Shown here: piece after piece, positions 17,542-58,200 of the stretch
How the letters are laid out: every line of letters starts with the position of its first letter
How positions within the stretch are numbered: position 1 is the first letter of the stretch
Translations under genes and position numbers: made by a program
Assembly: GCA_044892525.1 (NCBI GenBank)
Contig: CM097885.1
Span: forward strand, 9,612,001 to 9,676,000
Direction of reading: 5' to 3'
DNA length: 64,000 nucleotides
Origin: Schmidtea polychroa
Lineage: Eukaryota
The notes under the pieces: generated by a model
What the model saw: the letters and a program-made list of their open reading frames with translations, nothing else
Database searches by the model: none
What the model was told of the DNA's origin: nothing

Positions 17542-17558
17542 GTAATAATAATAATTAA

Positions 17559-17607
<49 letters not shown>

Positions 17608-22370: not shown

Positions 22371-22588
22371 AACATATGGAATAAATGATTTGTGGCAAAT
22401 GGATTTGATGGAGATGATACCCTATTCAAAAATTAACAAGGGGTATAAATATATTTTAACGTGTATTAATGTATACAGCAGGTTTGCACGAGCAATACCA
22501 GTCAAGTCAAAATCTGCAGATGAAATGTCCAAAGCTATTAATATTTTATTTAAAAATGGACATCCTAACAATTTACAAACGGATTTAG

Positions 22589-22686
<98 letters not shown>

Positions 22687-27148: not shown

Positions 27149-30100
27149 TATGTTTTTATTTAATTAAAATAAATTTAAATATAATACACTTATGAGCAAG
27201 GGAGGGACAGAATATTTTGTCGTATAAACTCAGATTATATAGTAATAATAAATAATAATAATTTTGATAATAATAATAATAATAATTTTGATAATAATAC
27301 TATTTTACTTATTTTATAGGTTATAAATATCCAACCTTTTGTAACAGTGCTACACATCATGACTGTGACGATATTATGGAAAAATATTATGGTCATGAAT
27401 ATAAAAGTGTAACATACTTGTTATGTCCTACATGCCAAACTCTTGAAACATCGACATATACCGAATTTTATGATAAACATCGTAATCATTTAACCCAATA
27501 TATGCCTTCTAAAAAATCAGTTTTCAAAATTGCGTATCAAAAATATATATCATCAACTAATAATAGGAACACCGAAAACTTACAAAATCGACAATTAATG
27601 GAAACATCAACAAAAATCAATAATAGGACCACCAACAAAAGTATGATTAATGCCATGTTGATACAAAATCGACAATTAATGGAAACAGTCAATAGATTAA
27701 TAGGAATAATAGATAATAAAAGACATTTAGAAATTCCCACAGAAATTCCCACAAAAAAGATGAAAGAAATAATAGTCATTAGTGAAGACGACGATGATGT
27801 TGTAAGTAATGAAGTTGTAAATAGTGAAGTTGTAAATAGTGAAGTTATAAATAGTGAAGTTATAAATAGTGAATTTGAAAATAGTGAAAATAGTGAATTT
27901 GAAAATAGTGATGTTGTACCCCAAGTAGGTAGTGGTATAGTCGACGTAGTTTCCGACCTGAATAGTTCCCATGTAATAGTTAAGTTGGATATATCTTCCT
28001 TGAATTGTAAAATTCTTTCTGTTCCTGACGTTCTCATAGAAAAATTGTTAGAAATTGTAAATAAAATGAAATCAGTAAAAATTCAATTTTGTATTAAAGT
28101 AGAGTTTGAGAAAAATGATGAATTTCAGTCTTTCATAATCTCAAACTCTGCTCGTGTATGGAGCGACACATTTATTGATGATGGTATCTCTCTTTTAAAT
28201 GAAAAAATTAGTAAAATAAATGAAAAGGGAAGTAATTGGACCATTAACAAAATAGAATACATTAGTTTTATTGTGACAAAATATTCAAAGATTAGTAGGT
28301 TGAGTGGTCGTAAATATATTGAAACCCCGAAAACATTAATCAGGAAAAAATGTATAATAAATGTAAATAATGATGACGAATTTTGTTTCCTTTACTCGGT
28401 TTTGGCTCTTATAAAATATGATAGTACTCCTGATGAATTGCGTCATCTGCCTAGTTCTTATAACCTTTCAGATCTGATATATAACCCGGCAGATATGCCA
28501 ATGAAATTATCAAATATCTCAAAATTTGAACGACAAAACCCAGGTTATTCAATTAATGTTTTAAGTTATGACGAAACTGGGTTAATTTCGGGTCCCATCA
28601 TGAAACATCCTTTTATAGATATAATTTATCGCAGTAAAATAGTAGGAGGTACTTGTCTAAATTTGTTATTATTACAGAATCGGAAAACCTACCATTACGT
28701 CGCTATATCTGATTTAAACATCTTTCTTAATTGCCGAAATTCATCAATAAGTTCTGTTCGTATTTACTGTAAGTGGTGTCCTAGATGTCTGAATGGATTC
28801 AGATTTGAAGATAGTTTTATTAAACATCAAGGTCTTTGTGAACGAAACCAATTAGGAACCACAATGTACACACTACCAAAAGATCCATTATTAGAATTCA
28901 CAGACTATAGTAAAATGATTACTCCTCCTTTTGTTATTTATGCCGATTTTGAGGCAATCCTTCCTAAAGATTCTAAATATTATCAGAAACATTTACCCAT
29001 TTCGGCTGGACTTTTATGTATAAATAATAATACAGGCGCAAAATTTTATAAATCATTCATAGGCCTTTCTTGTATAGACGAATTTTTAAAAGAAATTAAT
29101 GATATCGCTAAAAAGATTGTAACTCCCTATTATTATAAAAATAAAAATAAGAAAATGATATTCACAGAAAATGACCAAATTAATTTTAATAACAGCACAA
29201 ACTGTCATTTGTGTAAAAAATTATTAGTTAAACCAGTCAGGGATCATGATCACTTTACCGGTCAATTCCTTGGTGCTGCTTGCAACACTTGTAATCTTTC
29301 CAGGAAAATATACCACACACTACCTGTAGTCTTTCATAATTTGAGAGGGTATGATCTCCATCATATCCTCAAATTTGGCTTGGCTAAATATAAGTCCTGG
29401 CATATTTCTTGTATACCGGTGAGAAGTGAAAACTTTTTATCTCTTTTTGTGCATATTGATTCCCTGACTGTGAAATTTATAGATTCTTGTCAGTTTGTAA
29501 ATTCGTCTTTGAAAAATGCTGTCTCAACCCTTAACACATTACCTTTGACAGAATCTGAGTTTAGAGGGTCTATTATTAAGAGTAAAGGGATTTTCCCTTA
29601 TGATGTAGCAACTTCCCTTGATGTATTAATTTCTACATTAGAATTGCCCCCTAAATGGAGTGATGTATCCGATGATGAATACAATAAAGCAAAACTAATC
29701 TGGCAAGAGACATCATGTAATTCCCTTTTGGATTATATGATGGTCTATTTGAAATTAGATGTATTTCTGTTGGCTGACTTTTTTCAGCAATTCCGAGCTA
29801 AGAGTATTGCTCATAATAGGCTTGAGCCTTTGAATTTCCTAGGTATCCCCAGTCTTTCTTGGAGTTCTGCTTTGTTAAGTCTTGATAAACCGATTGAGCT
29901 TCTCACCGACATGGAAATGTATAATTTCTTTGAAGGTGGGATTAGAGGTGGGATAACGTTTGTGAATAAACATTTTGTTAGTAGTGATGAAAATACAGAG
30001 TTGTTGTATATTGACATCAACAACCTGTATGGATGGGCTTTATCACAAAAGCTTCCCGACGGTGGTTTTGAATGGGTGACTGATGACATTGCTTTAGAGA

Positions 30101-31452
30101 GATTATTAATTGAGTGCACAACGGAAGATTTAAATCAACTTGATTATGGCTATACTATAGAAGTAGATTTAAAAATACCGAAATCTATCCATGACAAACT
30201 AGATGATTTTCCGGTAGCTCCTGGTAAGATGTGCCCACCTTTTTCTAAAGTGGAGAAGTTGCTACTTACACACGATCCGAAAACACACTATGTTTTACAT
30301 TGGCGACTTCTCCAAATCTTTCTTCAGTCAGGTGTTGTTGTTACCAAGGTACATAGGGCTATTAGGTATACACAAAGCACTGTCTTCAAGAAATACATAG
30401 ATACCAACACACAACTACGAGCCGCATCCATAACACCGCTCGATAAAGACTATTACAAGTTGCTCAATAACAGTTTGTATGGAAAAACTGTTGAGAACTT
30501 GAAAAAACGTATTAACTTACGACTGTGCATTTCCGCACAAAAACTTATCACATATGCCTCAAAACCGGCATTTAAGAAATCTACTAGGATAGACGATGAT
30601 TTGATTTCGGTTTTGCTTATGAAAGAGTCTGTATGTTTAGATAGGCCCAGCTACATCGGGCAAACTGTACTTGATCTTTCTAAACTGAGAATGTATCAGT
30701 TGCAGTATAATGAATTGCAAAAATATCGCGATGAGTTTAACTGTGAAATTAATATAGTAGCTAGTGATACAGACTCTTTCTTTTTGGAAATTAAAAATTG
30801 TAGTCTTGACATTCTCTTACCTGCCATGATTCGTGACTCCTTGCTTGACACATCTAATTATAACCCACAACATCCTTTATATAGTAGAGCACTAGATTCC
30901 GTCATTGGAAAATTCAAAGACGAGAATAAAGGATTGAGATATAAGGAGTGGGTGTTTCTTCGTCCCAAGTGTTACAGCTTATTAGGTGATAAAGAAACTC
31001 TTAAAGCAAAATCTGTCACGTTGAAAGATACTGGCTTAGATCACAATTCCTATCGTGATTGTTATTTTAACAATAAGGTTTACTCTGTGCCACAATTCCG
31101 CATTGCATCCAAAAATCATCAATTGTACAGCATAAAAAACATTAAGAAGGCGCTGACAAATAGAGATGACAAGCGGTATTGGAAATCGAAAAACAAGAGT
31201 TTGGCATATGGGCATTATCGGATAGGGGACACTTTTATATATGATGATGACGACAATTTTGACGGAGAAGATTACTGATCATTTCGGTAATAATAATAAT
31301 TATTATTATAATTATTATTTTTTATTATTAATAGTTGTCAATGAAGCCAAGATTGTAAGAAACAATCAATGCAACAGACATTTGTAAAAATGACAATGTA
31401 AAATTGTAAATTTGTAATTTAAATATATTTTGTTGATTACTATTTTTCTAAG

Positions 31453-31501
<49 letters not shown>

Positions 31502-31518
31502 TTAATTATTATTATTAC

Positions 31519-31572
<54 letters not shown>

Positions 31573-32956: not shown

Positions 32957-35081
32957 CCGTAATTTCCGGTCTATAAGTCGCGGTTTTTTTCAGACGCTGA
33001 CGGTGCTGCGACTTATATAAAGGAGCGACTTATATAATAAGTTTAATCACGTGCCGTTTCTATAATAAATCTAAATGTAATCAACAATTTGTGACTGTTC
33101 TGTCTTTGATGAACTGATAATTGATGCCGTGGTTATCAAAGGCCCTTTTTGTAATATGATACAATCATAAACCATCACCATCATTATAATATATCTAAGA
33201 CGCCATATAGCCTATTTCGTAAACCAAGCTTACAGGATGTCTAGGCTAGGCGAACTGCCGCCATGTTGGCGTGTCAGTTTAACTGCCGATCTGATTGGTC
33301 ATTTCGGACCCTGGATCCGAAATTTGAGAGCCCATCAAACAAATGTCAGCTTTAATCACCAGATGGCAGTGTATATAAGACCGCTGTAATAGATTTCCTG
33401 TCAAAACAATTTAATTTTTCAAATTAAAATATACCGAAAGTTTAGTGCAAAATGAGTTCCAACAAAACAAGGAAATCGTACACTGCCGAGTTTAAGCTGC
33501 AAACTATCAAATTTGCTGAGGAAAACGGCAATCGAGCGACTAAGCGGCGATTTAATATTAGTGAAAAACTAGTTCGAGATTGGCAAAAATCAAAAGATGC
33601 GCTGTTGCTGACAAAAAGAACCAAGCGGGCGAATCGAGGTCATAAAGCAAGATGGCCAGGACTGGAAAATCAGCTTTCTAAGTTTATTGTGGAGCAGCGA
33701 GCTCAAGGTCGCGGAATATCAACCGTCCAAGTTCGTCTTAAGGCCAAAGAAATAGCGAATGATCTGGGAATTGATGAATTCATTGGTGGACCATCTTGGT
33801 GTTTTCGTTTCATGAAGCGCCAGCAGCTCTGCATCAGATCAAGAACGACCATGTGTCAACAACTGTCTGCTGACTACATCGAAAAAATCCGGAATTTTCG
33901 TGAATTCATTTATTCAAAAGTCGCGAAATATGAAATCATTCCAGATCATATTATCAACATGGATGAAGTTCCACTCACCTTCGATATTCCTCTGGGTCGA
34001 ACTCTCAATAACAAAGGTGAGAAAACGATCAACATAAGAACAACTGGCCACGAGAAATCGCAGTTTACGGTCGTGCTGTCATGCTGGGGTGATGGAAGGA
34101 AGCTTCCTCCAATGATAATCTTCAAAAGGAAAACCATGCCAAAAGAGGCATTTCCCAACAACGTGATCATTCAAACCAACGCAAAGGGATGGATGAATGA
34201 AGAAATGATGAACATATGGTTGGAGAGATGTTTCAAAAAGAGGCCTGACGGATTCTTCAAAACTAAAAAGGCATTGCTCGTAATGGACAGTATGCGAGCT
34301 CACATCACAGAGAACATAAAAACGAAAGTTAAAGGCAACAACTCGATTCCTGTCATTATACCAGGTGGTCTGACGAAGGTGATACAACCTCTGGATATTT
34401 CTGTCAACCGAAGTTTCAAGGTCCATCTGCGTCGTTTGTGGGAAAGATGGATGACCAGCGGTGAACATAGCTTTACGGCAACAGGTCGCATGCGTCATGC
34501 CACTTTTGCGGAAGTGGCCAAATGGGTGGTCGAGGCATGGGATAAATTGAATCCGGCGATTATCACCAGTGGATTCAAGAAAGCGGAAATCTTACTGGCA
34601 GACAATGATGACAACGACGACTCTGATAGCGATGATGATGATGACAACTATGAACTGACTGTACCAGATGAAATTGCTCAATTATTTGAAAGCGATACTG
34701 AAGATGAAGGCTTTAATGGATTTAATGGATTTGCAGACTCTGATTTTTATTGATAAATTTAACTTCATTAATCGACATTTATAACTTAGGCATTTCGTTT
34801 TATTGATATAAATAATTTCTCTATAAATTAAAAAGAAATATTCCACGTTATTAAATACTTGCGCTAAATGATTTTTGTTCTCACCTCTTCTCTTTAGTGT
34901 CTTTAATTAAACTTGGCGACCACCACCGAACAAAGTAAACATTTCCGCAGAGGCATGCTTATTACTGTATAAGTGCGACTTAAATAACGGAGCGACTTAT
35001 ATATTAATTTTTCCAAAATTTTAGCCATTTTTTACAATTGCGACTTATACACAGGAGCGACTTATTACCCGGAAATTACGG
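32957..35081 (+). mobile_element. pogo-family DNA transposon, apparently intact
   Basis: TIRs CCGTAATTTCCGG / CCGGAAATTACGG, TA target duplication, subterminal GCGACTTATA repeats. Confidence 0.95.
33452..34753 (+). CDS. pogo/POGK-like transposase (N-terminal HTH, CENP-B HTH, DDE_1)
   Basis: RKSYTAEFKL, GPSWCFRFMKR, NMDEVP, LVMDS, QPLDISVNRSFK, acidic tail. Confidence 0.95.
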   Translation: MSSNKTRKSYTAEFKLQTIKFAEENGNRATKRRFNISEKLVRDWQKSKDALLLTKRTKRANRGHKARWPGLENQLSKFIVEQRAQGRGISTVQVRLKAKEIANDLGIDEFIGGPSWCFRFMKRQQLCIRSRTTMCQQLSADYIEKIRNFREFIYSKVAKYEIIPDHIINMDEVPLTFDIPLGRTLNNKGEKTINIRTTGHEKSQFTVVLSCWGDGRKLPPMIIFKRKTMPKEAFPNNVIIQTNAKGWMNEEMMNIWLERCFKKRPDGFFKTKKALLVMDSMRAHITENIKTKVKGNNSIPVIIPGGLTKVIQPLDISVNRSFKVHLRRLWERWMTSGEHSFTATGRMRHATFAEVAKWVVEAWDKLNPAIITSGFKKAEILLADNDDNDDSDSDDDDDNYELTVPDEIAQLFESDTEDEGFNGFNGFADSDFY

Positions 35082-37575: not shown

Positions 37576-38415
37576 TGTTTACGTCTAAGACACATCAGAA
37601 GAATTGCTTTGTAATTAATCGCATCACACGCTTTATTTGTACAAAATCATTGTTTGTTAAACCGTTTAACGTGTCCAATAACTTAAGATTGAGCCATGAT
37701 TGAATTTGAAACATTGGATAATTGTTCAACACTTCGGCTAATAACAATTGGAGTTGTGTTGATCTTTTTAAGAGCTCGATTGAATAGAATATCATATTCA
37801 TAAGTTAGCAAGTTTATCTTTTAATCGCTCATGTCATAAATGGTTTCAGATAATTTACGAATATTTTTAAACCTTTGGGGAAATTTCATAAACATATCTT
37901 GGAGTTCCTCTTCTGTCATTTCATGATTTACAAAAATTAAATCGTTGATTTCCAATCGTTTTGAAAAACTTCCATTAATAATTTGCAACGATCTTGCTGA
38001 ACCACTATCACATGGACAAGTTTCACTGCTGAAAGACATCTCTTCGCCATATTGCTCATTGAAATACGACATATCAAACATTCATTATCTTCCATATTTC
38101 ACTAAGGCCGAAAATTCAAATCAAAATTATAAATCAATTCTTCAAAATCACAATTCCAGAAAACATAACTCCAACAATCAATTTCTGGAAAACACAAAGC
38201 CACAAGGCAAAATTCAAAATCAATCAAATCTCAGAAAACCAAATTCTTTCTAAAACAAAACCGTCCAAAAATATTCAAGATTTTTAAACCAAAATTCCAA
38301 ATCGATGAACAAGAAAAATAATAATATTCACAATTGTCCGCGTCTGTGTGCGCACACGAAAGCCTCCAAAAACCAGTACAAAGCGCACACAGACGCGAGA
38401 ATCGACAATTAATTA
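37576..38415 (-). mobile_element. Probable solo LTR related to the 50.5-55.3 kb element, with different cargo
   Basis: 840 bp; starts TGTT; flanked by CTGTA; same CGCGTCTGTGTG..CACACAGACGCG hairpin and A/C-rich tract in the same layout. Confidence 0.6.
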
Positions 38416-39797: not shown

Positions 39798-42660
39798 TTA
39801 AAGTGCTTGTTTCGATTTGCATTCATTTCTAGACATAGCAGTTGCAATATGCATTTGGCGAATCTTATAGTGACCGTAGGCATAACTTTCATTACAATTG
39901 TACCAATACCTTTTATCGTCCAAACATTGGAGAGCTCGTTTTTCTGTCATGAAAGTATACAACTGATGATTGACACTTCCTATTCTTTTTTGTGGGATGC
40001 TCACTGTTCCACCATCAGTATACACTTTTTTATAGGCTTCATGTGTAAGATTAGAGTTTGTAAGTCTTATTCCTTTGGCTTTTAGAGTGTTTTTATCGCC
40101 TTGGAGTGAGTAGCACTTGGGTCGAAGAAACACCCATTCTTTATATTGATTTCCTTTATTCTCATCCTTGAATTTCCCGATTACCGAACAAATTTTATCT
40201 GAGAACAATGGATCAGTCACTGGATAATTTGAAGTATCTAGGAGCCCATCGGCAATCATTTTTGGATATAGTTGTAAGCGTAAATCTACATTTTTACACT
40301 CTAAAAAGAAGGAATCTGTGTCACCGGCTACGATATTAATTTGACAATTGAATTCTTCTCTATAACTCTGTAGTTCTTTATATTGAAACTGGTACATGCG
40401 AAGTTTGGATAAATCAAGTACGGTTTGTCCAATATACATTGGTCTATCTAAACACACAATTTCCTTATTGAGTATAACAGCAATGAGATCATCCGCAATC
40501 TTGATGCTACGACGAAACATAGGATTACTACAATAAGTTATCAATCTTTTGCTTTTGCTGCATAATCTCAAATTTATACGTTTCTTCAAGTTTTCCACAG
40601 TTTTACCGTATAAACTATTGTTCTTTAACTTATAATAATCTCGCTGAAACGAATCTGTACTAGCTGCTCTCATTTTGGTATTGTAATCAATATAGCCTTT
40701 GAAAATAGCCACTTGCTTGAATTCTACAGCACGATTAACTTTTGTGACTTTTGCGCCGTAACTCAACCACTCTGTCAAAACTCTACTATTAACTACATAG
40801 TTTTTCTTAGGCTCATGAGTTAACAACAGCTTTTCAACTTTACTACCAGGTGGATAACAAAGCTCAGGAGCTATAGGTAAATCATCTAGTTTATCTTGTA
40901 TACTATCAGGAATGACGATGTCAACCTCTAGAACATATCCAAGATCTCCATCAAACTTATCCCCATTTGCACATCTTTCAACAATACCATTCATTTCAGT
41001 CTGATCATTTATCCATCTAAATTTACCAACAGGAAGTTTTTGCGACAGCGCTCATCCATATAAATTATTAACATCTAGGTATGACATTTGTGTTGATTCA
41101 TCAGCTTCAACATGATGTTTGTTGATAAATGTCATTCCACCACGAATACCAGCTTCAAATAAACGGTAAAGCTCTGGATCTTGAATAAGTTCTACTGGTT
41201 CAGGTAACTGTTTAATAGCTGATGCCCAACTTAATCCGGGTATGGAAACAAACGATAGAGCCTCAAGTCCATCTTCGTCAAATGTTTTTTCTCTGAAAGC
41301 TTCAAAAACATCGGCCAACAGAAAAACATCCAACTTGAGATATACTAGCATGTAATCTAGCAGTGTCTCACAGTTGTATTGTCGCCAGATTCGATTTGCA
41401 TGTATATAATCTTCTTGACTAACTCCCTCCCAAATAGGTGGTAATTCTGTTATTGAATGTAAAACATCCATTGATGTAGCCATATCATAAGGAAATATGC
41501 CTTTACCAGTTATTAAATGCGAATTGAAAATCTTTGAAGTAAGTGGAAGATGTGGCAAGTTTTTTGATAAATTTGCCAAGCTGCTATTTAAAAATTGTAA
41601 AGAATCAATGAATCTAATTCTTCTGCCTTTCGATGTCGCTGTAAGTGTGAGAAACTTTTCTGTTGATTGAGGAATAACAATTAAATTCCAATCGGGGAAT
41701 TTTCCAATTGCATATTTTAATATATGATGAATGTCATATCCACGAAGATTATGAAATACAACAGGTAAAGACGGATTGATTCTTCTAGCCAAATTACAAT
41801 CTTGACACGGTGCTCCGAGATATTGACCGGTAAAATGATCATGATCCCGAACAGGTATATTGATAATCTTTTTACAAAGGTAGCAATGAGTTTGATTCGT
41901 AAATTCTTCCTGCTGTTCCCAAGTGAGTTCCATCATTTCCTTCGATCCATTAATTTTATACCACGGATAAACTATGTCTGTAGCTATATCATCCAATGCT
42001 TGTATAAACTGAATGATACAGTTTTTCCCAACAAATGTTTCATTTCGAATCGGACAACCTTGATGAAGAAGCACAAATTCAGATGCAATCGGCTCATGTT
42101 TTTGGAAGTGCTTGTCATCTAGAGGTAATATTGATTCAAAGTCCGCGTAGACAACAAACTGCTGTTTTATAGTTTTACTCCAGTCTTTAAATTCGCTATA
42201 TTTATTCTCTGGCATTGAGTATAGAGTCGTCCGCTCCACATTCTTCCTACAAAGACCTATATGTCTTTCAAAAGCAGGACGTTTTTGAAACCCATGAAGA
42301 CACGTATGACACCAATGTGATTGGATTCTGACTCCTTCTACTCTATCTCTGTAATTGAGCAGTCGATCGAGATTAGTTACAGCCAAAAAATGATAATTTA
42401 ATTCTAAAATTTAGTTAAAATTTTTAATGATTAAAGGAAATATTACCTTCTTCAATCAATAAGAGATATAATTGAGATCCCGTCGAAGTACTTCTATATA
42501 CCAAGTCAACGAACGGATTCTTGAAAATATCATTAGTTTTTTGTTTAATTGGATCTTTATTATATTTGAGAACATTGGTCGCTAGATTTGGATTCATTGC
42601 TTCAAATTGGCAAATGTTAACCAACTTCATTGGAAACCAATCTGATTTCCATTTTAACTC

Positions 42661-42722
<62 letters not shown>

Positions 42723-43767
42723 GAATGATATAAATATATATTACCACTTAAATTATATTTCATTATTCTTTCTCTGTGATGTTTTATGTCATCATAATGT
42801 AATACGGCCAGTATGCTATATAAAAAGCAGAATTGATCATTATTTTGAACATTAACTAAAGCCTGACAGTTTTTCAGGTAATTTGGCGTTTTAATGTAAC
42901 TTGAACCTAAGTAAATATCTTGATTTATATATATAATAATGTAAATAAACTTACCAGATACATGTATTATGTCTGATAATTTAGTTAAAATCATAGTAAC
43001 TTCTAATATTTTATGAATTCTCCACCCACTACTTTGTTGAGTGTATTTCTCCAACTTTTCTTTTAATTTTTCAATTCCATCATTAATAAATGAAGATGAC
43101 ATTGTAATTGCTTTATTCGACAAACACCATTTTTTAATTTCACCATCCTCTTTGATAAACTCTGCGCAAAGTCCAAATTGGATTTTTACTGTCCCCATTC
43201 GTTGAATATGATCTTCTATTTCTTTGATGAGACAATCTGGAACAACAATGTCAGGAGAATTAATTGCAGATACATCGCTTGTCAATTCAACACGAGAACC
43301 ATTTAAGTCAGACTCCCGACGTGGACACAATTGTATGTTAGAGTCTCCATTTCCGTAAAATATTGACTTTCGTTTTGTGGTGCCAGAGTTTTGTCTAACT
43401 ATATTTATAATTAATATTAAACAACTTAAATAACATAACTTGTAACATATTCTTTAATCTGCTTAGGATCGTATGATGTATTCATTTTCGGTTGTACTAT
43501 AAAAAATTAATAATTGTTAATAGTAGAAAGAGTATTACTTTTAGTGATCATCCTGCTCTTCGTTTCTTCGAATCTTCTAAGATGGTGTCCGTGTTGTCGT
43601 ACAAACATTAACCACCTACCTGGTGATATAATGAGACATTCCGGACATATGTAACCCGATAAGGTAGAGTCATTTATCTTGAAATATGATGATGTAACTG
43701 ATTTACAGTTCTCCACACCTTCATGACTTTCGGCAATACAAAATTTATATAAACTGCATCCGTTCAC
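39798..43767 (-). pseudogene. polB: Second-family Polinton pPolB, intron-containing, with one nonsense codon
   Basis: Colinear with pPolB of the first element; introns 42404-42446, 42660-42744, 42907-42954 and others near 43.4-43.8 kb; DVNNLYG*ALSQKLP stop at 41052-41054. Confidence 0.9.
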
Positions 43768-44564
43768 TAAAAGAAAATAATCAATAATATTAGATAGAGA
43801 ATAAAAAATTATTCACTTATATAAGTTAAATTAAAAGTTTAAATGACAAACATTTGAAAAGTTACTGCTTATATATTACACATGATTAAATTCTGACCAA
43901 TCAAAATGAAGGAAGGGGTAGGAAAAATAAATATATATATATTCTGACCAATCAAAATCAAGGAAGGGGTAGGAAAAATAAATGCATTACGTTGCAGTAT
44001 TTTAAAACTTCAATATATTTTAAAACACATTTTGATGCTAAAGTTGACTTATTTAACATTTTTCATAATAATTTAATAAAAAATAATGTGATGAACCCAC
44101 AAAGTAATATCATTTTTCATCAAATTGCAAAACAGTAATAACGTTTTCATAAAATTGTAACAAAGTAATAACATATTTCAGATAAATTTTCAACAGTTGT
44201 AAAATATTTAAGCAAATTGTAACAAGATTAGAAAATATTACAATAAAGTAGTAACATATTTCAGAGAATTTCATCAAAGTTGTAAAATATTTATCAAATT
44301 GTAACTAAAATAATAAAAATATTGCAACAAAGTAATAAAATAATGATGTTAAATGGGACAAATCAATACATTATTTCGAAGACCGACAACAAATTAAAAA
44401 GAATATTGTAATAAATTGTGAAGTCTTTCAGTAAATTACAACGAAGTAATAACATATTTCAGAAATATTTCACCAGATGTAAAATATTTAAGCAAATTGT
44501 TTTAAGATTATAAAAATAGTGCAACAAAGTAATAAAATAATACAAAATTTTAAACTCTAGATCA

Positions 44565-45410
44565 ATCCATTTTATAGAAAATTAAATTTTATCTCTATAA
44601 TATATGAATAAATATACAAGGAAATTACGTTAACTGTATGAAAAATACAAATTTATCGTAAAAACATGTGTGTATTACACACAACATACGAGACATAATT
44701 TCTAATCAAACTATTTTATAGAAAATTAAATTTTCTCTATATAATATATGAATAAATATCCAAGGAAATTACGTTAACTGTATGAAAAATACAAATTTAT
44801 CGTAAAAACATGTGTGTATTACACACAAAACAAGATACATAATTTCTAATCAATCCATTTTATAGAAAATTAAATTTTATCTATATAATATATGAATAAA
44901 TATCCAAGGAAATTACGTTAACGTATAATAAATACAAATTTATCATAAAAACATGTGTGTGTATTACACACAAAACAAGATACATAATTTCTAATCAATC
45001 CATTTTATAGAAAATTAAATTTTATCTATATATTATATGAATAAAATCCTAAGAAAATTACGTTAACTATATGAAAAATACAAATTTATCGTAAAAACAT
45101 GTGTGTGTATTACACACAACATACGAGACATAATTTCTAATCAAACTATTTTATAGAAAATTAAATTTTATCTATATAATATATGAATAAATATCCAAGG
45201 AAATTACGTTAACGTATAATAAATACAAATTTATCATAAAAACATGTGTGTATTACACACAACATACGAGACATAATTTTTAATCAAGCTATTTTATAGA
45301 AAATTAAATTTTATCTATATAATATATGAATAAAATCCTAAGAAAATTACGTTAACTATATGAAAAATACAAATTTATCGTAAAAACATGTGTGTATTAC
45401 ACACAAAGCG
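44565..45410 (+). repeat. ~120-bp tandem repeat, about 7 copies
   Basis: Unit ttttatagaaaattaaatttta...gaaattacgttaac...catgtgtgtattacacaca. Confidence 0.9.
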
Positions 45411-45605
45411 ACAAACTAAAGTTTTAATTGAGCCATTTTGTAGAGAATTAAATTCTGCCTATACATAGTTACACTTAAATCCCAATTGAACAAAGAGAAA
45501 AGAGAGAGAAAAAACAGTAGAGTAGGGTATCGTGTGGACCCGGGTGAAACCTTTGCATAGATCTCTTCAAGACTTTTCGAATGATGTGAATAAAATATAA
45601 TTAAA

Positions 45606-46036
45606 TTTAAAATACCGCAACGTAATATATTTAATAATTAAAATATAATAAATTTTAAAATACCGCAACGTAATATAAATTTTAAAATACCGCAACGTAA
45701 TATATTTTTAAAATACCACAACGTAATATATTTTTTAAAATACCGCAACGTAATATATACGTCATATGTCTTTGTAGTAGGGTATTGTGTGGACCCGGGA
45801 ACAAAGACATATGACGTCATCGATGAAGTCACAAACACGTATTTTTTTTTAATTTTTTAAAAATTTTTTTTTAAAATTTTTTTTTTAAAATTTTTTTTTC
45901 AAATTTATATTACGTTGCGGTATTTTAAAAATATATTACGTTGCGGTATTTTAAAAATATATTACGTTGCGGTATTTTAAAAATATATTACGTTGCGGTA
46001 TTTTAAAATTTATATTACGTTGCGGTATTTTAAAAT
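45606..46036. repeat. ~26-bp repeats in two inverted blocks
   Basis: aaaataccgcaacgtaatata (45606-45757) and its reverse complement (45903-46036). Confidence 0.9.
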
Positions 46037-46054
46037 TTATTATATTTTAATTAT

Positions 46055-47085
46055 TATATAGATAAAATTTAATTTTCTATAAAATAGTTTGATTAGAAAT
46101 TATGTATCTTGTTTTGTGTGTAATACACACATGTTTTTACGATAAATTTGTATTTTTCATACAGTTAACGTAATTTTCTTAGGATTTTATTCATATATTA
46201 TATAGATGAAATTTAATTTTCTATAAAATAGTTTGATTAGAAATTATGTCTCGTATGTTGTGTGTAATACACACACATGTTTTTACGATAAATTTGTATT
46301 TTTCATATAGTTAACGTAATTTTCTTAGGAATTTATTCATATAATATATAGATAAAATTTAATTTTCTATAAAATAGCTTGATTAAAAATTATGTCTCGT
46401 ATGTTGTGTGTAATTCACACATGTTTTTACGATATATTTGTATTTTTCATACAGTTAACGTAATTTTCTTAGGATTTTATTCATATAATATATAGATAAA
46501 ATTTAATTTTCTATAAAATAGTTAGATTAGAAATTATGTCACGTATGTTGTGTGTAATACACACATGTTTTTACGATATATTTGTATTTTTCATACAGTT
46601 AACGTAATTTTCTTAGGATTTTATTCATATAATATATAGATAAAATTTAATTTTCTATAAAATGGATTGATTAGAAATTATGTATCTTGTTTTGTGTGTA
46701 ATACACACACATGTTTTTATGATAAATTTGTATTTATTATACGTTAACGTAATTTCCTTGGATATTTATTCATATATTATATAGATAAAATTTAATTTTC
46801 TATAAAATAGCTTGATTAAAAATTATGTCTCGTATGTTGTGTGTAATACACACATGTTTTTACGATAAATTTGTATTTTTCATACAGTTAACGTAATTTT
46901 CTTAGGATTTTATTCATATAATATATAGATAAAATTTAATTTTCTATAAAATAGTTAGATTAGAAATTATGTCTCGTATGTTGTGTGTAATACACACACA
47001 TGTTTTTTACGATAAATTTGTATTTTTCATATAGTTAACGTAATTTTCTTAGGATTTTATTCATATAATATATAGATAAAATTTA
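46055..47085 (-). repeat. Same ~120-bp tandem repeat in inverted orientation, about 8 copies
   Basis: Reverse complement of the 44565-45410 unit. Confidence 0.9.
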
Positions 47086-48180
47086 TTTTTCCTACCCCTT
47101 CCTTCATTTTGATTGGTCAGAATTTAATCATGTGTAATATATAAGCAGTAACTTTTCAAATGTTTGTCATTTAAACTTTTAATTAAACTTATATAAGTGA
47201 ATAATTTTTTATTCTCTATCTAATATTATTGATTATTTTCTTTTAGTGAACGGATGCAGTTTATATAAATTTTGTATTGCCGAAAGTCATGAAGATGTGG
47301 AGAACTGTAAATCAGTTACATCTTCATATTTCAAGATAAATGACTCTACCTTATCGGGTTACATATGTCCGGAATGTCTCATTATATCACCAGGTAGGTG
47401 GTTAATGTTTGTACGACAACACGGACACCATCTTAGAAGATTCGAAGAAACGAAGAGCAGGATGATCACTAAAAGTAATACTCTTTCTACTATTAACAAT
47501 TATTAATTTTTTATAGTACAATCGAAAATGAACACATCATACGATCCTAAGCAGATTAAAGAATATGTTACAAGTTATGTTATTTAAGTTGTTTAATATT
47601 AATTATAAATATAGTTAGACAAAACTCTGGCACCACAAAACGAAAGTCAATATTTTACGGAAATGGAGACTCTAACAAACAATTGTGTCCACGTCGGGAG
47701 TCTGACTTAAATGGTTCTCGTGTTGAATTGACAAGCGATGTATCTGCAATTAATTCTCCTGACATTGTTGTTCCAGATTGTCTCATCAAAGAAATAGAAG
47801 ATCATATTCAACGAATGGGGACAGTAAAAATCCAATTTGGACTTTGCGCAGAGTTTATCAAAGAGGATGGTGAAATTAAAAAATGGTGTTTGTCGAATAA
47901 AGCAATTACAATGTCATCTTCATTTATTAATGATGGAATTGAAAAATTAAAAGAAAAGTTGGAGAAATACACTCAACAAAGTAGTGGGTGGAGAATTCAT
48001 AAAATATTAGAAGTTACTATGATTTTAACTAAATTATCAGACATAATACATGTATCTGGTAAGTTTATTTACATTATTATATATATAAATCAAGATATTT
48101 ACTTAGGTTCAAGTTACATTAAAACGCCAAATTACCTGAAAAACTGTCAGGCTTTAGTTAATGTTCAAAATAATGATCAA
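47081..48180 (+). pseudogene. polB: Inverted duplicate of the 5' part of the second-family pPolB, truncated
   Basis: Near-identical reverse complement of 42833-43932. Confidence 0.9.
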
Positions 48181-48640
48181 CGATGCCTAATATTTTTAGA
48201 ATGATGCCTAATATTTTTAGAACGATTACATCATACTTTTAGAATGGTGCCTCTTATTTTTAGAATGATTACGTCATAATTTTAGAACGATGCCTAATAT
48301 TTTTAGAATGATGCGTAATATTTTTAGAACGATGCCTAATATTTTTAGAACGATGACTCATATTTTTAGAACTAATATTTTTAGAACGATGCCTAATATT
48401 TTTAGAATGATTACGTCATATTTTTAGAACGATGCCTAATATTTTTAGAATGATTACGTCATACTTTTAGAACGATGCCTAATATTTTTAGAACGATGAC
48501 TCATACAATGACTCATCACATTTTAAGAACGATGACTCATACGATGACTCATCATATTTTTAGAACTAATATTTTTAGAACGATGCCACATATTTTAGAA
48601 CTATTACGTAATCGAAGCCTAATATTTTTAGAACTAATAA
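48181..48640. repeat. ~21-bp minisatellite containing TGACTCA / TTACGTCA variants
   Basis: tttttagaacgatgcctaata units. Confidence 0.85.
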
Positions 48641-50494: not shown

Positions 50495-51073
50495 TTATAT
50501 TTGTTCATTCGCGAATTCATAATAATCATAATAATCACACATAATCATTTTATTTTCATATACATGTTTATATCTACATCGAGCTGCTTCCATTTGTGCA
50601 CGACATACTTGAGATCGATAATCAGGGATCATAGCAGTCATAACACCTCCAGTACTTTCAGTAATATTAAACAATCTCGTAGCGGAACTCTTCTCAATCA
50701 TTTTATTTGGAACCTGTCTTTGTGTAGCTACACATAAATTTGATCTCATATTATTCCTTTCTGAACACAAAACAATATCGATTCGGCCATTTTGATCTTG
50801 AGCACATTTCAACAAATTTGTTTGATCCATATTCAATTCACCAGGTACAGATTGAACTAATTGTCGGTCTCGAGATAATGTGATTAGAGAGAATCCATTA
50901 TCCAGAACTTTAAGAGATTTGCTAGATCTGATAACATCGTCTTTACAAATAGTTTCTATTTCCATTTTGCTGCGGGTTCTATTCAACCTTGCCATTAAAT
51001 CATCGAGATCCATCAATTCCCCGTTATATTTAGATTCATAATTTGTAACTTTGTTACTTTCCATAAATTCCAA
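50495..51073 (-). CDS. LTR-borne chimeric SNF8/PSMA6 fragment ORF (3' LTR copy)
   Basis: [38 protein letters not shown] resembles SNF8; [34 protein letters not shown] resembles PSMA6. Confidence 0.75.
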   Translation of the reverse strand: MEFMESNKVTNYESKYNGELMDLDDLMARLNRTRSKMEIETICKDDVIRSSKSLKVLDNGFSLITLSRDRQLVQSVPGELNMDQTNLLKCAQDQNGRIDIVLCSERNNMRSNLCVATQRQVPNKMIEKSSATRLFNITESTGGVMTAMIPDYRSQVCRAQMEAARCRYKHVYENKMIMCDYYDYYEFANEQI

Positions 51074-51358
51074 CCAAAATCGAAGAGAACTCCTTCAACA
51101 AACTTCAATTCAACCTTAAATCCATTCGAAATCGATAAATCTAAAAACTCAAAATTACAACTAAATAACCACAAATTCAAATACCTCTTGCTCGCGTCTG
51201 TGTGTGCACACAGCCAAAAACAAAGAAAAGAAAAGCGCACACAGACGCGAGGATCGGATTAAAAATTTCCACTTTCTCCATTTTACGCGTCTGTGTGCGC
51301 ACACAACCAACACAAAGAAAAAAGCGCACACAGACGCGAAACAACTAATAATTCACCA
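50502..51358 (-). repeat. 3' LTR
   Basis: Direct repeat of 54415-55271; one mismatch seen (tgttcattc vs tgttcaatc). Confidence 0.97.
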
Positions 51359-51372
51359 TCCTCCCCCCCCTT
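51359..51372 (-). promoter_or_regulatory. Polypurine tract
   Basis: AAGGGGGGGGAGGA immediately before the 3' LTR on the minus strand. Confidence 0.9.
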
Positions 51373-51545
51373 GACACCTTAGTGTCAATCTCAAATCCCC
51401 ATCAGCTTCTCCTTCTTCTTTTATACTCAAACATACTTTGAAGATACATTCCCGTGTCAGTTTATTCCTTTTCCCCTTCATTTCTTGCACTTCCCTCGCC
51501 ATTTTATCCCTTTTCCCTTTCATTTTCTGCATTTCCCTCACCATT

Positions 51546-54500
51546 TCATCCCTTTCCCCCTTCATTTCCTGCATTATGGCTCAATCTCCAATAACCCTCA
51601 CAAACCCATCTTTGTATTATATAAGCCGCCGCGCCACGCACCTTTTTTGAAAGATCGTTGTGGATTCTCCATCCACCAACGCCATACTCGGCCAAGCAGC
51701 TGTCCATGTTCAGTTTGTTTAGGTGTAATCTCTCCATTATTATTTCTCCATTTTTCGCCAATTCCATATTCCACACTTTTTCCTGTTGCATTTCATTTTG
51801 TGACCAGTTTTCACTTAATGTTTTTACAAGCATCCTACCAAGTGGTTCTTTGATTGCTTCGTGTTTCGATTCCCCAATCGACACCTTGTCTTTCATGTGC
51901 ATCTTTAGAGGCGGGCAAGCGAGTTCCAGTGATCCTTGTTGTTTGAAACTGTTCGATGATTCGTTCAATTTTTCCAAAACTTCCTTGGCCCCTTGATCAT
52001 TATCACGTACAGTTTTCCATGATTTCCCATATACCATACTGGTCTCCTTGTTTTGCCTCTCCCCTCTGGAGTCTTCTGCCCCTTTTACATTATCACGTTC
52101 TTCTTTTAATCGATTAACTTCCCCTTCGTCGACCTGCATATCATTAACCGCCGCCTCGGGCGTTAACTCCTCTGATTCTGGTTTGTCTTTTTCCCAATTA
52201 CTCATCACTTCCGTTGTCTTCGGTTCCACAATTTTATCGTCGGATAATTTTATGATCTCACCAGCCCGGCAAGCCTCATCTTGCTTTTTCCCTGTATTCA
52301 TTTTTCCTTGAACATTTTGTGTCATTGTCATAACGTTAAATAATTCGTTAGTTCTTCCAGAATTGAATATTTGCCCATCTAAATGACTCTGAGCTCCTTG
52401 CTCTTCATTAGATGCCTTACTCCTGTCGAGTGGCGTGTCCTCCATTCCTCGAGATGCGCGTAACTCGTCATTGAACATTTCAGTTACCGCAAAATAACTC
52501 TGACCCGTCCTCATTGATGCGTTTTCATTTAGTAATTCGTTGTGTCTCTGCTTACATCCGGTAACCTTGCAGAAAGATTCTTTACGACATTCCTTGGCCA
52601 TGTGATTTCTTTTGAAGCAATTCCTGCACAGTTTCTTTTCTTCGATGACTCTCTTCCTTTCTGAAATTGTGAGTTGCTTAAACTTGTCACATTGGTCTAG
52701 GTAATGTTGACCACCACATTGTACACACTCTGATCTATAGCCGTTAGAGTTATTCACCTGTATAACCGTTCCACTTTTAACTCTGCCATCTGGTTGCCCC
52801 GTAAAATGCGTCCAACCTCCTGGATTGAAGCTTTCTCTGTCTCTAGACACACCTTCTACTCTTGACACATCATAAGCCCTGGTGCATGGTTGAGTCCCAT
52901 ACACAACCTCGTTAGTGGACCTTAGGATCTCCGCTTCTTGTTGTATCCATCTTCTCAAATCCTCTATCGTCTCCCGCAATTCCTTTTCTATTTTCTCTTT
53001 CTTCCATTTATACACAAGATCCGTTGTTAACTTGCCCAAACACTTTTGAAAAAGATATCCAGTCTTTAACTCGGATTCTTTCCCAGTGGATTTAAATCGC
53101 ACGGTGACTGTTTCTAATAATCCAACAAATAAGTCTAGATCCTTCAAATCTCCTTCTCGAATTGGCCTGAACTGGTCCATCTCCTCAAACATTGATAAAT
53201 ATATCCTTTCATCCCCACCATATCGCCTATCCAACTTCTCTTTTGCCATTTGATAAGCCTCTGCTGAATATCCAAGATTTTCAATTAACTTTAATGGCTC
53301 TCCGTGAAGGTACTGGTGCAGGTGAAACATCTTTTCAACCTCATCACCTTCCGCTTCGTCAACACACGCCGTAAAAGCTGCTTTCCATGGTTCGTACTCT
53401 TTCATCTTGCCTTCAAAGACCGGTATTGTAATTTTCTGTAGACTTTCCAGTTTTCTTTTATGCCCGGAATTATTCTTCTTGATGGTATCATCATTCCCCT
53501 TTTCCTTCTTTTCCATAAAAGATTGATTTGCTTTTCTTTCCATCAATGCCCCAATTATTTGATGTTTTTCCTCGATCTCCTGCAGGTCTTTATCTAAGAT
53601 TGCAGTGATGTCCAATCTATGCAATTTTTCACTGATCGTTCTTAGATCTCTTAATTCTTCATCTAGACTCTCCTTTATATCTTCATATTCCTCCAACCAT
53701 TTGCTAACATCCTTACCCTTTATATCATTCAGAATCTTGTTTCTCCATCTCGTTAATTTTCCTTTTTTCATTCTCTTTTTCCACATTTCTTCTTCTAAAA
53801 TCTCTTCGTCATTGCCACCGCACAGCCTAAGTGACAAATGAAGTGTCGACCCTACTTGTATCCTATAATCATTCAATCTTCTTTTATTTTCTAACTGCTT
53901 TCCTGCGTATACTAACGTTTGATAATTTTCCGGAATTCCTTCTTTGTCCTGGATTTTTCCTTTTATCTTTTCAATTGTGTCGTTCCATTTAACGTCCAGA
54001 GTAATTGTCTTACCAGTAAGAGTCTTGACAAATATTTGATTTATACTTCCCCATCGCAACTCAAAACCCATTACCCCGCTCGCCCTCACCCTTGACTCAG
54101 ATCTGTTCTTTACCCTGTTCCCCTGGCTTCCCCCTTTAAAAGAGTGCTGGGGCCCATAGCAGCACTTTCCCACGCTCGGTAGGGAAGGGAGGATGTTTAA
54201 TTTTACAAAAGTATTATAATATATACATAATATGCATGAACAAGATTTTTTATAATACATATTAATTACCAAAATATTATTAATTACAAAGATATTATTA
54301 AACACATAATAAACATAATATTTACATAAGATATATAAACCCAAAAAAGACAGTTTATAATACATTTTAATTACCTTGTTCCGGCTGGCTAGCCGGAACC
54401 ACGCTCTGCTACCATGTTCAATCGCGAATTCATAATAATCATAATAATCACACATAATCATTTTATTTTCATATACATGTTTATATCTACATCGAGCTGC

Positions 54501-54986
54501 TTCCATTTGTGCACGACATACTTGAGATCGATAATCAGGGATCATAGCAGTCATAACACCTCCAGTACTTTCAGTAATATTAAACAATCTCGTAGCGGAA
54601 CTCTTCTCAATCATTTTATTTGGAACCTGTCTTTGTGTAGCTACACATAAATTTGATCTCATATTATTCCTTTCTGAACACAAAACAATATCGATTCGGC
54701 CATTTTGATCTTGAGCACATTTCAACAAATTTGTTTGATCCATATTCAATTCACCAGGTACAGATTGAACTAATTGTCGGTCTCGAGATAATGTGATTAG
54801 AGAGAATCCATTATCCAGAACTTTAAGAGATTTGCTAGATCTGATAACATCGTCTTTACAAATAGTTTCTATTTCCATTTTGCTGCGGGTTCTATTCAAC
54901 CTTGCCATTAAATCATCGAGATCCATCAATTCCCCGTTATATTTAGATTCATAATTTGTAACTTTGTTACTTTCCATAAATTCCAA
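51546..54986 (-). CDS. gag: SNF8-fragment / PSMA6-fragment / ubiquitin / BEL Gag open frame (shorter Ub-Gag product from ATG 54071)
   Basis: Ubiquitin 53814-54041; [49 protein letters not shown] and [10 protein letters not shown] knuckles. Confidence 0.85.
54397..54414 (-). promoter_or_regulatory. Primer binding site for initiator tRNA-Met
   Basis: TGGTAGCAGAGCGTGGTT directly after the 5' LTR; complementary to the tRNAi-Met 3' end ...CUCUGCUACCA. Confidence 0.9.
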
Positions 54987-55271
54987 CCAAAATCGAAGAG
55001 AACTCCTTCAACAAACTTCAATTCAACCTTAAATCCATTCGAAATCGATAAATCTAAAAACTCAAAATTACAACTAAATAACCACAAATTCAAATACCTC
55101 TTGCTCGCGTCTGTGTGTGCACACAGCCAAAAACAAAGAAAAGAAAAGCGCACACAGACGCGAGGATCGGATTAAAAATTTCCACTTTCTCCATTTTACG
55201 CGTCTGTGTGCGCACACAACCAACACAAAGAAAAAAGCGCACACAGACGCGAAACAACTAATAATTCACCA
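54415..55271 (-). repeat. 5' LTR
   Basis: Direct repeat of 50502-51358; followed by the PBS on the minus strand. Confidence 0.97.
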
Positions 55272-58200
55272 ATATTTAATTTACAAATTTTTCTCGCTCT
55301 TCTGCTGGTAATCTATCTCAAAATTATCATCTCCATCAGGCCATTTGGAATACATCTTGCAAATTGGACGTATTTCTTAGTTTCTGATGCGGTGTCAACT
55401 ATCATTGCTAAAATTTAAAAGCCATTAACTTACAGATGTTATTTATCATTTTATCGTCAGAAATTAAATTCTACCTGACTATTAGGCAACTGTTATTTGT
55501 GGTATACTTTTTCAATGACATTTCCCACCATAAAACACAGATACCTAAATATAATATATTTATTTTAAAGAATTATTTCATGTCTTACATTATTAATAAT
55601 ATTCTTCAGGTGTAACGAATATTTTACAATATCTAATTGTTAAAACATCGGTTTTCCCATTTTTCTTGACATTCGTTGAAAGAAAGTTTACATAATTTAA
55701 GTCTGATAAGTAAACATACATGTTGAAGGACACCTACAATCAGCTAATTCATTTAAAAAATCCAGAACATAACTCCTTTAGTGTTTCACCATTTTGTCTG
55801 GTTCATCTTCTTCATAATCATATAATTCATGTTTTAATAAGAAATCTCTAAATCCAGAACATAAGTCTTTTAGTGTTTCACCATTTTGTCTGACTCATCT
55901 TCATAATCATATAATTCATTTTCTTCATTACTAAGTAAAATAATTAAAATATTGTAGTAAATTCTTTATTTACTTACTTTATGGATACTAAAACGAAAGA
56001 AATAAAGTTATATCATAATTATATTTAATTAATTTAAATTTAAATAATTTAAATTTAGTATTTAAACATATTTAAACAATTTAGTTATTTAAGCATATTT
56101 AAACATTATTATATAGTATTTATAAAATATTATAATATTATAATTTTATGTATTCTAAATTTATTAATAAATACAGTATAATTTTATATAATATTATAAT
56201 ATTATGTACACTTATATATCCTTCATTTAATTTTTTAAATTCAAAAATTTATAATGAAGATTTTTTGAATTAAAAAATATTCTGTTAGTATTTCCATGCA
56301 GAAAACAACGAATTCAATAATTAAAATCTTAATTTTCATGTTGTTAGGGTTGTGGCCAGAAGTTAATCGCCATCTAATCGTTTGTTCTCAATTTCGCTCA
56401 TTTTTGTTCAAAACATTCAGGAGAGTTGTTATCTGGAAAGTTTCTTTTAGCTCAGCTTTCTTTAAACACTCACGGCATTCTTGAAAGATGTGACACTGGA
56501 AATAAATTAACAATGGGTGGTCTTGCATACATGTTGTTGGTTTGAACTGTTGATTTATTTTAGAAATATGTATATTAAAAACATTTAAGGTATCATTCAG
56601 TAAAATAATATAGTATTTTTGAGTATTTTTTAGTTGATTTATAAATAACAGTATTTTGATATATCAATAAAGACCATATACTCCTAGTTTATCCGACAAA
56701 ATATTCTGTCCCCCTATGGGTATTGCTAGCAAGGGTACTGGTCACATTCAACATGTCGCAAAGGTATATTAATCATTTAGAAATTCTTAGGTAATTTAGT
56801 GAGATGATCAGAAATTCGTGAATATTTTAAATGTAACTTTACACTTATGTCGAGCGACTAATTTATTGGTTAACTTTGTAGTCATTTAAAGCAAAAATTA
56901 ATTTATTCATCTAATGTTCGTTACAATAGTTAATAATATGAGAAAACATGGTCATTATTCATTGATAATTTTAAATTCTTTATCATTTGGAGTAAATTTG
57001 TTTGAGGCAAAAATAATTAAAGGAGTCATAATAGAAATATGGTTATCATTTATCCAATTAAGGGGCTTATTAGTTAGAAATATATATTAAAAAGTAACAA
57101 TTATTTTCTAATTTAATTAGATGATCATTAGACGTAATATATCTTTGCGAGAAATTTAAGATGTTTGAGTAACCAAAACATGGATATTTTGTACGATAAA
57201 TTTATGAATATTGGTTAATTTAGTCATTAAAATAATAATATAATAAGGTAATTTAGGAAAATATCATTTATCCATCCGATAACAATATTCCTTCAATAGA
57301 TATTCAACCGATTTAATTTCTAATTAAAATCATAAATTTCCTTCAAAGATCATTTTTCTTTAGTTGTTTTCCAATTCTTTTAAGTTAATATTTCTCAAGC
57401 TTTGTCAACGATATCCCCAAAATGAATAAAATAACTTCTTAAATAAAAATAATTTAAAGCAATAACCATTGATATCAATTAATTCTAAAGATTTCAAATT
57501 TCTCATTGTCAAAAACAAGTAAATTGATCATTAACCATTAATAAAACCGTGGATAATTAATTAAAACTGGTTCTGAAACATAAATTACTGTGCAACCTCT
57601 AAAACGATATAATTTCACAGGAACTATTCACAGCTGACTATTTCCCTTCAAAATTTGATATTTTACCAATAAGAATATATAAATATTCAAAACATTAACC
57701 GATCCCTCACCAAATATTTCTAGCATTTTAAAAACCCCCTTAAAAATCATATATTACCATCTTAACCTTCACTAAATCCAACCGAATATAATTTCACCCA
57801 CTTGAGCCCTTTAATATATCTTAAAATCCATAGAAATTCTTCAAAATATGAATTTTATTTAATTGTTACAAACATTCTTCCATTGAAATAATTTAGTAGC
57901 TAAATTCAAAGACCTCAGTAAAAGATCAAAATTCGCTAAAATGAATATTTCCTACAAATATTTCACCACATTCACCATCAAATATCTAATTAGAGATGAA
58001 ATATATTGATAGATCATCGATTCGGCTAATTATAGCCATTATAAAATGATATATCTTTCAAATTAAATCACAAATTTCAGTATATTTTACATTAATTTTC
58101 AAGTAGATTTCAAATATATCATCATCATGATAAAATTAGTTGGTTTCAACTTTAGATTTTCAATATTTTAAAGTATCATCAATGTGTAAATATTCTTAGA

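Follow-up and report, generated by a model that had tools for sequence, protein, structure and literature searches.

A young gag-only BEL/Pao-type retrotransposon of Schmidtea polychroa whose LTRs carry host coding sequence in one open frame with ubiquitin and Gag

Introduction

BEL/Pao retrotransposons encode a Gag protein with a DUF1759 domain and three Cys/His knuckles, and their Pol domains follow the order protease, reverse transcriptase (RT), RNase H/Peptidase_A17 and integrase. A definition specific to BEL/Pao is absent from the excerpts available of PMC3286476 and PMC3601003; for the systems cited here by PMC or bioRxiv number, the comparison covers such excerpts.

In animals, host mRNA is captured into LTR elements by LTR-mediated retroposition, for which template switching is presumed (Tan et al. 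2016, PMC5131818). The captured pieces sometimes come from at least two genes, lie in the sense orientation, often keep the parental frame and are amplified non-autonomously. Maize Bs1 is an LTR element with a chimeric ORF made of pieces of several host genes (PMC13317346, PMC5131818). In yeast Ty1, which has a 5' UTR at positions 1-53 and a primer site at 95-104, GAG starts upstream of the tRNA-iMet primer site and the primer site is translated (PMC5454406). Cytopathic pestiviruses carry captured ubiquitin in their polyprotein, and cleavage by host hydrolases gives the protein that follows it a defined N-terminus (PMC8310069). Plant TR-GAG elements have two LTRs and a single Gag ORF and are mobilised by autonomous relatives (PMC8704663).

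The element described here, found in a 64-kb stretch of S. polychroa DNA (the window, to which all unlabelled positions refer), is comparable to each of these systems in the respects named, with translation of its primer site, cleavage at its ubiquitin and mobilisation by relatives being predicted. With BEL/Pao (Semotivirus) it shares the DUF1759 Gag, the Cys/His knuckles, the TG...CA ends and the 5-bp duplication, and Peptidase_A17 and DUF5641 are found in its longer relatives.

Results

Anatomy and classification of the element

The element has the marks of an LTR retrotransposon, namely direct LTRs with TG...CA ends, a target-site duplication, a tRNA primer-binding site and a polypurine tract (Table 1). 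A plain segmental duplication was considered and is ruled out by the primer site, the polypurine tract and the target duplication. When the window was compared with itself, the LTR pair was 99.9% identical over 857 bp, the sole mismatch being at 50508/54421. The family is young, with 0-5 mismatches in most LTR pairs. The mismatched base lies 7 nt from the LTR end, and several young elements (also L082 and L140) have a difference between their two LTRs at this place, in both directions. The two tandem inverted repeats at the LTR start and the highly variable T-rich stretch that follows them are likely the U3, or promoter, side.

The window Gag has two full Cys/His knuckles and a third without its last His; this third knuckle is complete in a relative, L064. 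Pfam detected no pol domains in the 1153-aa frame of the window copy, and no RT motif was found in the 3056-bp internal region. The copy is therefore without the RT and integrase of its own that would define it as autonomous. Relatives with the same LTR carry pol, in the order RVT_1, Peptidase_A17, Integrase_H2C2 in L064 and with DUF5641 in L065; pol is broken into several frames in both of these relatives. Among 31 two-LTR copies, 23 were of the gag-only type, six had an RT motif and two had neither. The Gag domain and knuckles, together with the Pol domain order of the same-LTR relatives, place the element as BEL/Pao-type on sequence grounds. The open tail that stands in the place of pol had no Pfam match, and a search for its origin found no source.

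Three further observations concern related sequences. A tandem element with three LTRs, of which the middle one has both polypurine tract and primer site, was found at G000:C2:5696800-5706700 (L143). The tRNA-Met 3'-end pattern has 1253 matches genome-wide, and tRNA-Met(CAT) genes form a tandem array of 454-bp period at G000:C1:79.32-79.39 Mb (L181). Within the window, 38327-38404 is a short match (76-77%) to the inverted repeats of the LTR start and may be the remnant of an old, related LTR.

Table 1. Positions of the element and its parts in the window (strand: -, minus; a dot, no strand).
Feature	Position	Strand	Remarks
Gag-only BEL/Pao-type LTR retrotransposon, whole	50502..55271	-	4770 bp; paired TG...CA LTRs, primer site, polypurine tract, 5-bp target duplication
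5' LTR	54415..55271	-	857 bp; primer-binding site directly after
3' LTR	50502..51358	-	857 bp; polypurine tract before; LTR to which the original prediction referred
Target-site duplication, copy 1	50497..50501	.	same 5 bp as 55272-55276
Target-site duplication, copy 2	55272..55276	.	same 5 bp as 50497-50501
Two tandem GC-rich inverted repeats at LTR start, then T-rich stretch	55108..55252	-	from sequence and predicted fold
1143-codon frame: cargo, primer site and leader, ubiquitin, Gag, tail	51546..54977	-	from ATG at 54977
In-frame ATG gained in window lineage	54975..54977	-	SNF8-derived ATG 21 nt downstream lost there
SNF8-derived piece, 3' LTR	50758..51035	-	271/286 identical (95%) to host single-exon SNF8, locus L031; 54671-54948 in 5' LTR
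Spacer between host pieces, 26 nt, in frame	50732..50757	-	no match to either host gene; part of 31-mer found 316 times
PSMA6-derived piece	50554..50731	-	3' part of exon 2 and ~8 nt of exon 3 (50554-50561), intron absent; 54467-54644 in 5' LTR
Likely poly(A) signal AATAAA, inside open frame	50549..50554	-	54462-54467 in 5' LTR
Primer-binding site, read as codons	54397..54414	-	18/18 complementary to host tRNA-Met(CAT) 3' end plus CCA
T-rich leader, in frame	54039..54396	-	between primer site and ubiquitin
Ubiquitin domain, LRLCGG end	53814..54038	-	PF00240, E 7.8e-23
BEL/Pao-type Gag, DUF1759 and Cys/His knuckles	52530..53813	-	PF03564, E 1.8e-12, over cut-off
Open tail, ~330 codons, in place of pol	51546..52529	-	no Pfam match; common to 23/31 two-LTR copies
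Polypurine tract	51359..51370	-	abuts 3' LTR

Host SNF8 and PSMA6 sequence in the LTRs

The original prediction held that host fragments, an SNF8-like piece joined in frame to a PSMA6-like piece, lie within both LTRs and make over half of the LTR coding-like. Matches to the host genes in both 857-bp repeats confirmed this: about 455 of 857 bp (53%) are host-derived, and the limits of the two pieces were refined to approximately those of Table 1. Host genes were located by family searches of the contigs of the genome (781 Mb, four very large contigs). SNF8 has a single full-length match, a single-exon frame of 244 codons, and the family search gave 149 fragment matches beside it. In the relevant part, the host PSMA6 gene (L051) is interrupted by introns of 50 and 43 nt, and its exon 2 was identical to the LTR at 158 of 169 positions (93%). 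In the minus-strand frame 50495-51094, Pfam identified EAP30/Vps36 (E 3.7e-9, aa 20-120) and Proteasome (E 5.5e-6, aa 121-180). The best PDB matches of the LTR frame were PSMA6 (1e-13) and SNF8 (2e-10), and a protein database search with the same frame returned one match, 96% identical. The 26-nt spacer between the pieces matches neither host gene, and no source was found for it.

The 31-mer at the junction of the pieces occurs in 316 genomic copies (at most two mismatches), against 0 for a reversed control. The 87 exact junction sites listed for the largest contig were examined. They comprised 17 LTR pairs, 33 solo LTRs, two lone 5' LTRs, six lone 3' LTRs and 12 unresolved sites, which supplies the solo-LTR count that had been proposed as a check. 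All the solo LTRs are flanked by a perfect 5-bp duplication, and one of them duplicates another. For the selection tests, 15 further elements were added to the contig sample; as they were chosen from earlier genome matches, the sample is biased toward copies close to that of the window. A set of 79 insertions was obtained from 85 by removing a duplicate, a truncated copy and four copies whose end was not located.

The prediction had also stressed that the cargo lacks introns in an intron-rich host, and had suggested that the fragments be aligned to the host loci for exon junctions. The argument holds for PSMA6, where the piece spans exons 2 and 3 without the intron. It is uninformative for SNF8, since the host coding region is a single exon and absence of introns says nothing about the captured piece. 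The exon 2/3 junction of PSMA6 is retained in 66 of the 79 insertions, the intron is present in none, and the region is deleted in the other 13. The retained sequence runs well into exon 3 in 30 of the 66 and is limited to about 8 nt in 36, including the window copy. In sister LTRs without SNF8, the PSMA6 piece also spans the position of intron 1. Capture of PSMA6 from genomic DNA is ruled out, the intron being found in no copy; the PSMA6 cargo is derived from spliced host mRNA.

The prediction attributed the capture to template switching by reverse transcriptase, which is the likely route. The model fits the sense orientation of the cargo and the swapping of upstream modules onto shared PSMA6 sub-lineages; it is from this pattern that we infer the switch itself. 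No pre-capture LTR was found in a search for microsimilarity at the capture junctions. Later deletions in the cargo show flanking microhomology by eye. Relative to the long class, the window form is 126 nt shorter, which is accounted for by a 138-nt deletion and a 12-nt duplication.

Additionally, a gene for another proteasome alpha subunit is represented across the genome by numerous decayed fragments (L044, L053-L057), which are perhaps the cargo of a different element.

One frame from the LTR through the primer site into ubiquitin-Gag

The frame of the 5' LTR does not end with the repeat. It runs on through the primer site and the leader into ubiquitin-Gag, a continuation that the original prediction overlooked. 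The frame reaches ubiquitin in 27 of 34 5'-type LTRs, and one more had no ubiquitin match. Within the cargo, the frame is open in 66 of the 79 insertions. No stop in the cargo is common to insertions (0/43, about 2 expected), a result that is not significant alone.

Length changes in the cargo were tallied by net length and by aligning 13 natural copies. Those common to at least two insertions measure 45, 3, 138, 12, 216 and 186 nt, and all six are multiples of three (P 0.0014), as opposed to the private changes, 10 of 12 of which shift the frame. A 1-nt deletion lies at approximately the same place in two copies; if it is counted as shared, the tally becomes 6/7 (P 0.007). Deletions with flanking microhomology in coding DNA may also slightly favour in-phase events. 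Upstream of the cargo, on the variable T-rich side, lengths are spread over the three phases without preference (16/16/14). The distances from primer site to ubiquitin that are in phase are 280, 286, 289, 292, 295, 376 and 382, and five other lengths are single copies.

An in-frame ATG is present in all 79 insertions. It is the SNF8-derived one in 47 and another, 21 nt upstream, in 32 including the window copy; no insertion has both. Out-of-frame ATGs precede the start in most copies, so that either a transcription start site near the in-frame ATG or leaky scanning is required. The leader has in-frame ATGs of its own, and Gag could also start past the primer site.

The possibility was considered that the cargo lies in an untranscribed U3 or is never translated, its open frame being inherited from host coding DNA and its phase with Gag being due to chance. 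The youth of the family, the relatedness of the copies and the in-frame ATGs of the leader would be compatible with this. It is nevertheless highly improbable given the contrast between shared and private length changes, the seven in-phase leader lengths, the compensating start codon and the placing of unrelated cargos all in the frame of the primer site. Selection for phase with Gag would instead place the cargo within the 5' portion of the RNA that is translated, and so in a long R region.

The frame is kept while residues drift

Cargo substitutions relative to the host that occur in at least two insertions were counted over 180 nt at the start of SNF8 and over 168 nt of PSMA6 exon 2. There were 33 nonsynonymous and 10 synonymous changes over 273 and 75 sites, a pN/pS of about 0.9, as neutrality would give (P 0.71). 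With the window copy as reference, pN/pS was 0.31 for ubiquitin, 0.40, 0.25 and 0.24 for three segments of Gag, and 0.80 for the tail. Ubiquitin and Gag together, with 70 nonsynonymous to 58 synonymous changes, differ from the cargo with 33 to 10 (Fisher P 0.012). When the window was compared with host SNF8, omega was 0.36 (12 differences, 5 synonymous and 7 nonsynonymous), which could indicate some constraint on the SNF8 piece, the value including changes on the host lineage. Taken together, the counts indicate that the reading frame of the cargo is likely under selection and its residues neutral. A working SNF8-PSMA6 protein was considered and rejected on account of the neutral drift and the partial domains.

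The ubiquitin is under purifying selection. Its end is LRLCGG, found in 30 of 33 copies, and not LRLRGG, which makes cleavage uncertain.

Exchangeable cargo in related LTRs

The LTR end joined to the primer site occurs 351 times in the genome. Of the first 30 of these sites, 24 are preceded by an open stretch of at least 100 codons in the frame of the primer site, and none by such a stretch in either of the other two frames. As a control, this comparison is weakened by the stops that the LTR end itself has in another frame and by the near-identity of several of the 30 loci. Pfam was applied to 14 of these loci, and 10 gave pieces of DSPc, Adaptin_N, HSP70, RING (below cut-off) or proteasome. 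In one sister LTR (L049, 1441-2247), a mosaic of PSMA6, myotubularin and ClpP lies in one frame. Some loci have two ubiquitin units. Derived 3' ends of PSMA6 are common to L173 and L072, and to L163 and L149, under different 5' cargo; the upstream modules of L173 and L163 are unlike those of the two SNF8-bearing sub-lineages. The modules exchanged on PSMA6 sub-lineages include SNF8, a Rab-like piece and others.

One explanation would be that a host-like open 5' region is itself favoured, the RNA resembling a well-translated host mRNA and evading translation-coupled and piRNA surveillance in stem cells. The tail is also open but close to neutral, the frame spans nearly the whole RNA, and many of the cargos come from housekeeping genes. 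Furthermore, it has been proposed for a planarian that poorly translated transcripts are channelled into piRNAs in a pioneer round (PMC10954484), and the main piRNA clusters are enriched in antisense LTR and depleted in antisense genic sequence (bioRxiv 10.64898/2026.01.28.702291). However, the cargo drifts from its host counterparts and has often undergone deletion, with as little as 86 nt left past the junction, six of 30 family 5' LTRs have fewer than 100 open codons, and abundant mRNAs would be the ones most often captured anyway. This explanation is considered improbable.

The poly(A) signal and solo LTRs

In the original prediction an AATAAA follows the cargo. The motif is there, but it lies inside the open frame and not past its end. 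The window contains 312 AATAAA motifs in all, and one alone means little. The motif nonetheless falls no more than 80 nt from the LTR end in 78 of the 79 insertions, and in 26 of 30 family 5' LTRs, whose cargo varies, it stands 35-53 nt before that end. Since its position is fixed while the cargo varies, the motif belongs to the element and not to the cargo. A second AATAAA (50702-50707, 54615-54620) arose inside the PSMA6 piece in the window lineage; the host sequence differs there by one base.

An antisense poly(A) site near 51160/55075 was considered and rejected. The support consisted of single contigs ending in A-runs, in three RNA-guessed or unlabelled runs from two studies, and oligo-dT mispriming explains it. 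Genomic copies at this place have T-runs of up to 9, and a version with 12 T was not found in the genome.

Any solo LTR had been predicted to be a self-contained expression unit or a source of small RNAs. In its broader form this would make the LTRs, solos included, mini-genes for an SNF8-PSMA6 chimeric protein or small-RNA sources that regulate both host genes. A large share of the LTRs are solo (33/87), and 26 of 32 solos have an open frame; the LTR shares 40 perfect 30-mers with host SNF8 and 13 with PSMA6, and captured fragments in maize elements serve as siRNA reservoirs against the donor genes (PMC13317346). No in-frame stop, however, precedes the AATAAA within the LTR. The order of start, stop and poly(A) signal is thus absent, the message would be a non-stop one, and a normal mini-gene is unlikely. 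The residues are not conserved, both pieces are partial domains, and the open frames of solos appear to be inherited, since their frequency is close to that in 5' LTRs (29/34). The selected feature, phase with Gag, is provided only by a 5' LTR. The cargo is in the sense orientation, so that targeting would need antisense transcription. The explanation as a whole is very unlikely, and the self-contained expression unit is doubtful; that small RNAs are made against SNF8 and PSMA6 is possible, judging from the shared 30-mers.

Other features of the window

Several other mobile-element-like features were noted. Perfect 4.3-kb inverted arms (17489-21785 and 27275-31571) each contain the same 1326-codon frame, which we take to resemble a protein-primed DNA polymerase; the only Pfam match is a weak one to endonuclease VII. 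Between the arms (22180-25937) are an rve integrase frame and two unassigned frames. The arms and enclosed frames resemble a Polinton whose polymerase is duplicated in the arms. Broken frames related to the 1326-codon frame occupy 39798-48204, and 1.1-kb inverted arms (42820-43932, 47081-48193) surround two opposed arrays of ~145-bp repeats. An intact-looking frame for a pogo/Tc5-type DDE transposase lies at 33446-34753. Positions 1-6324 have a strong A skew and include a RING-TRAF-MATH frame (2151-3578), like the accessory genes of planarian Burro elements (PMC6431247).

Discussion

The reading preferred here, to which we give a probability of roughly 0.7, is that the locus is a young gag-only BEL/Pao element whose LTR cargo forms a translated but functionally neutral front end, likely derived by template switching and likely clipped off at ubiquitin. 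The cargo pieces come from host genes, and PSMA6 from spliced RNA. The cargo would lie in a long transcribed R region, which reverse transcriptase starting from the primer site would cross first. A jump to a co-packaged host mRNA and back would then be copied into both LTRs in one round. The observed pattern of shared in-frame changes could arise because ribosomes initiating at the LTR ATG have to get as far as Gag: a capture or deletion would spread only if it preserved the frame, while the amino acids would be free to drift. By analogy with the pestiviruses, host deubiquitinases may cut after the Gly-Gly of ubiquitin and free Gag from anything upstream. The element would make its own Gag and borrow Pol from longer relatives with the same LTR.

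An adaptive extension of this reading would make the LTR a site for interchangeable pieces of host mRNA, with ubiquitin as the insulator between it and Gag, that shields the RNA from piRNA and translation-coupled surveillance, such that piRNAs against the element would hit SNF8 and PSMA6. We regard this extension as unlikely.

LTRs are usually treated as non-coding, and here hundreds of them carry host coding mosaics. These are doubled at each transposition and left behind as solo LTRs, so they can inflate apparent gene families and can confuse RNA-seq, RNAi and piRNA mapping of essential genes. The family separates selection on the frame from selection on the amino acids. It also offers natural replicates of RT capture and shuffling of host mRNA, and of the question whether host mimicry protects a transposon from piRNAs.

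A literature search, dependent on its wording, found no BEL/Pao element in print with host cargo in the LTR and ubiquitin ahead of Gag; Repbase or planarian supplements could describe the family. The single ingredients all have precedents, namely capture of mRNA by LTR elements, the upstream Gag start of Ty1, ubiquitin as a processing signal and gag-only elements. Their combination was not found in the sources available and may be new.

Each of the closest systems differs from the window element in a definable way. In the retrocopies of Tan et al. 2016, host sequence takes the place of part of the internal ORFs, with LTR sequence on either side, whereas the cargo described here sits within both LTRs and leaves gag intact; the spliced-mRNA origin that characterises those retrocopies is shared by PSMA6, SNF8 being uninformative. 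The cargo of the window element is, moreover, phased into Gag through the primer site. In Bs1 the cargo is flanked by the element, while in the present family it is in the repeats, varies among members and spreads in solo LTRs. Ty1 has about 14 codons of its own before the primer site; the window element has about 190, mostly host-derived, followed by leader and ubiquitin. The pestiviruses are RNA viruses in which the cleavage has been tested, whereas in this retrotransposon, with its LRLCGG end, cleavage is putative. In comparison with the TR-GAG elements of plants, the window element is from an animal and has a BEL/Pao-type Gag, which is preceded by cargo and ubiquitin and followed by an open tail.
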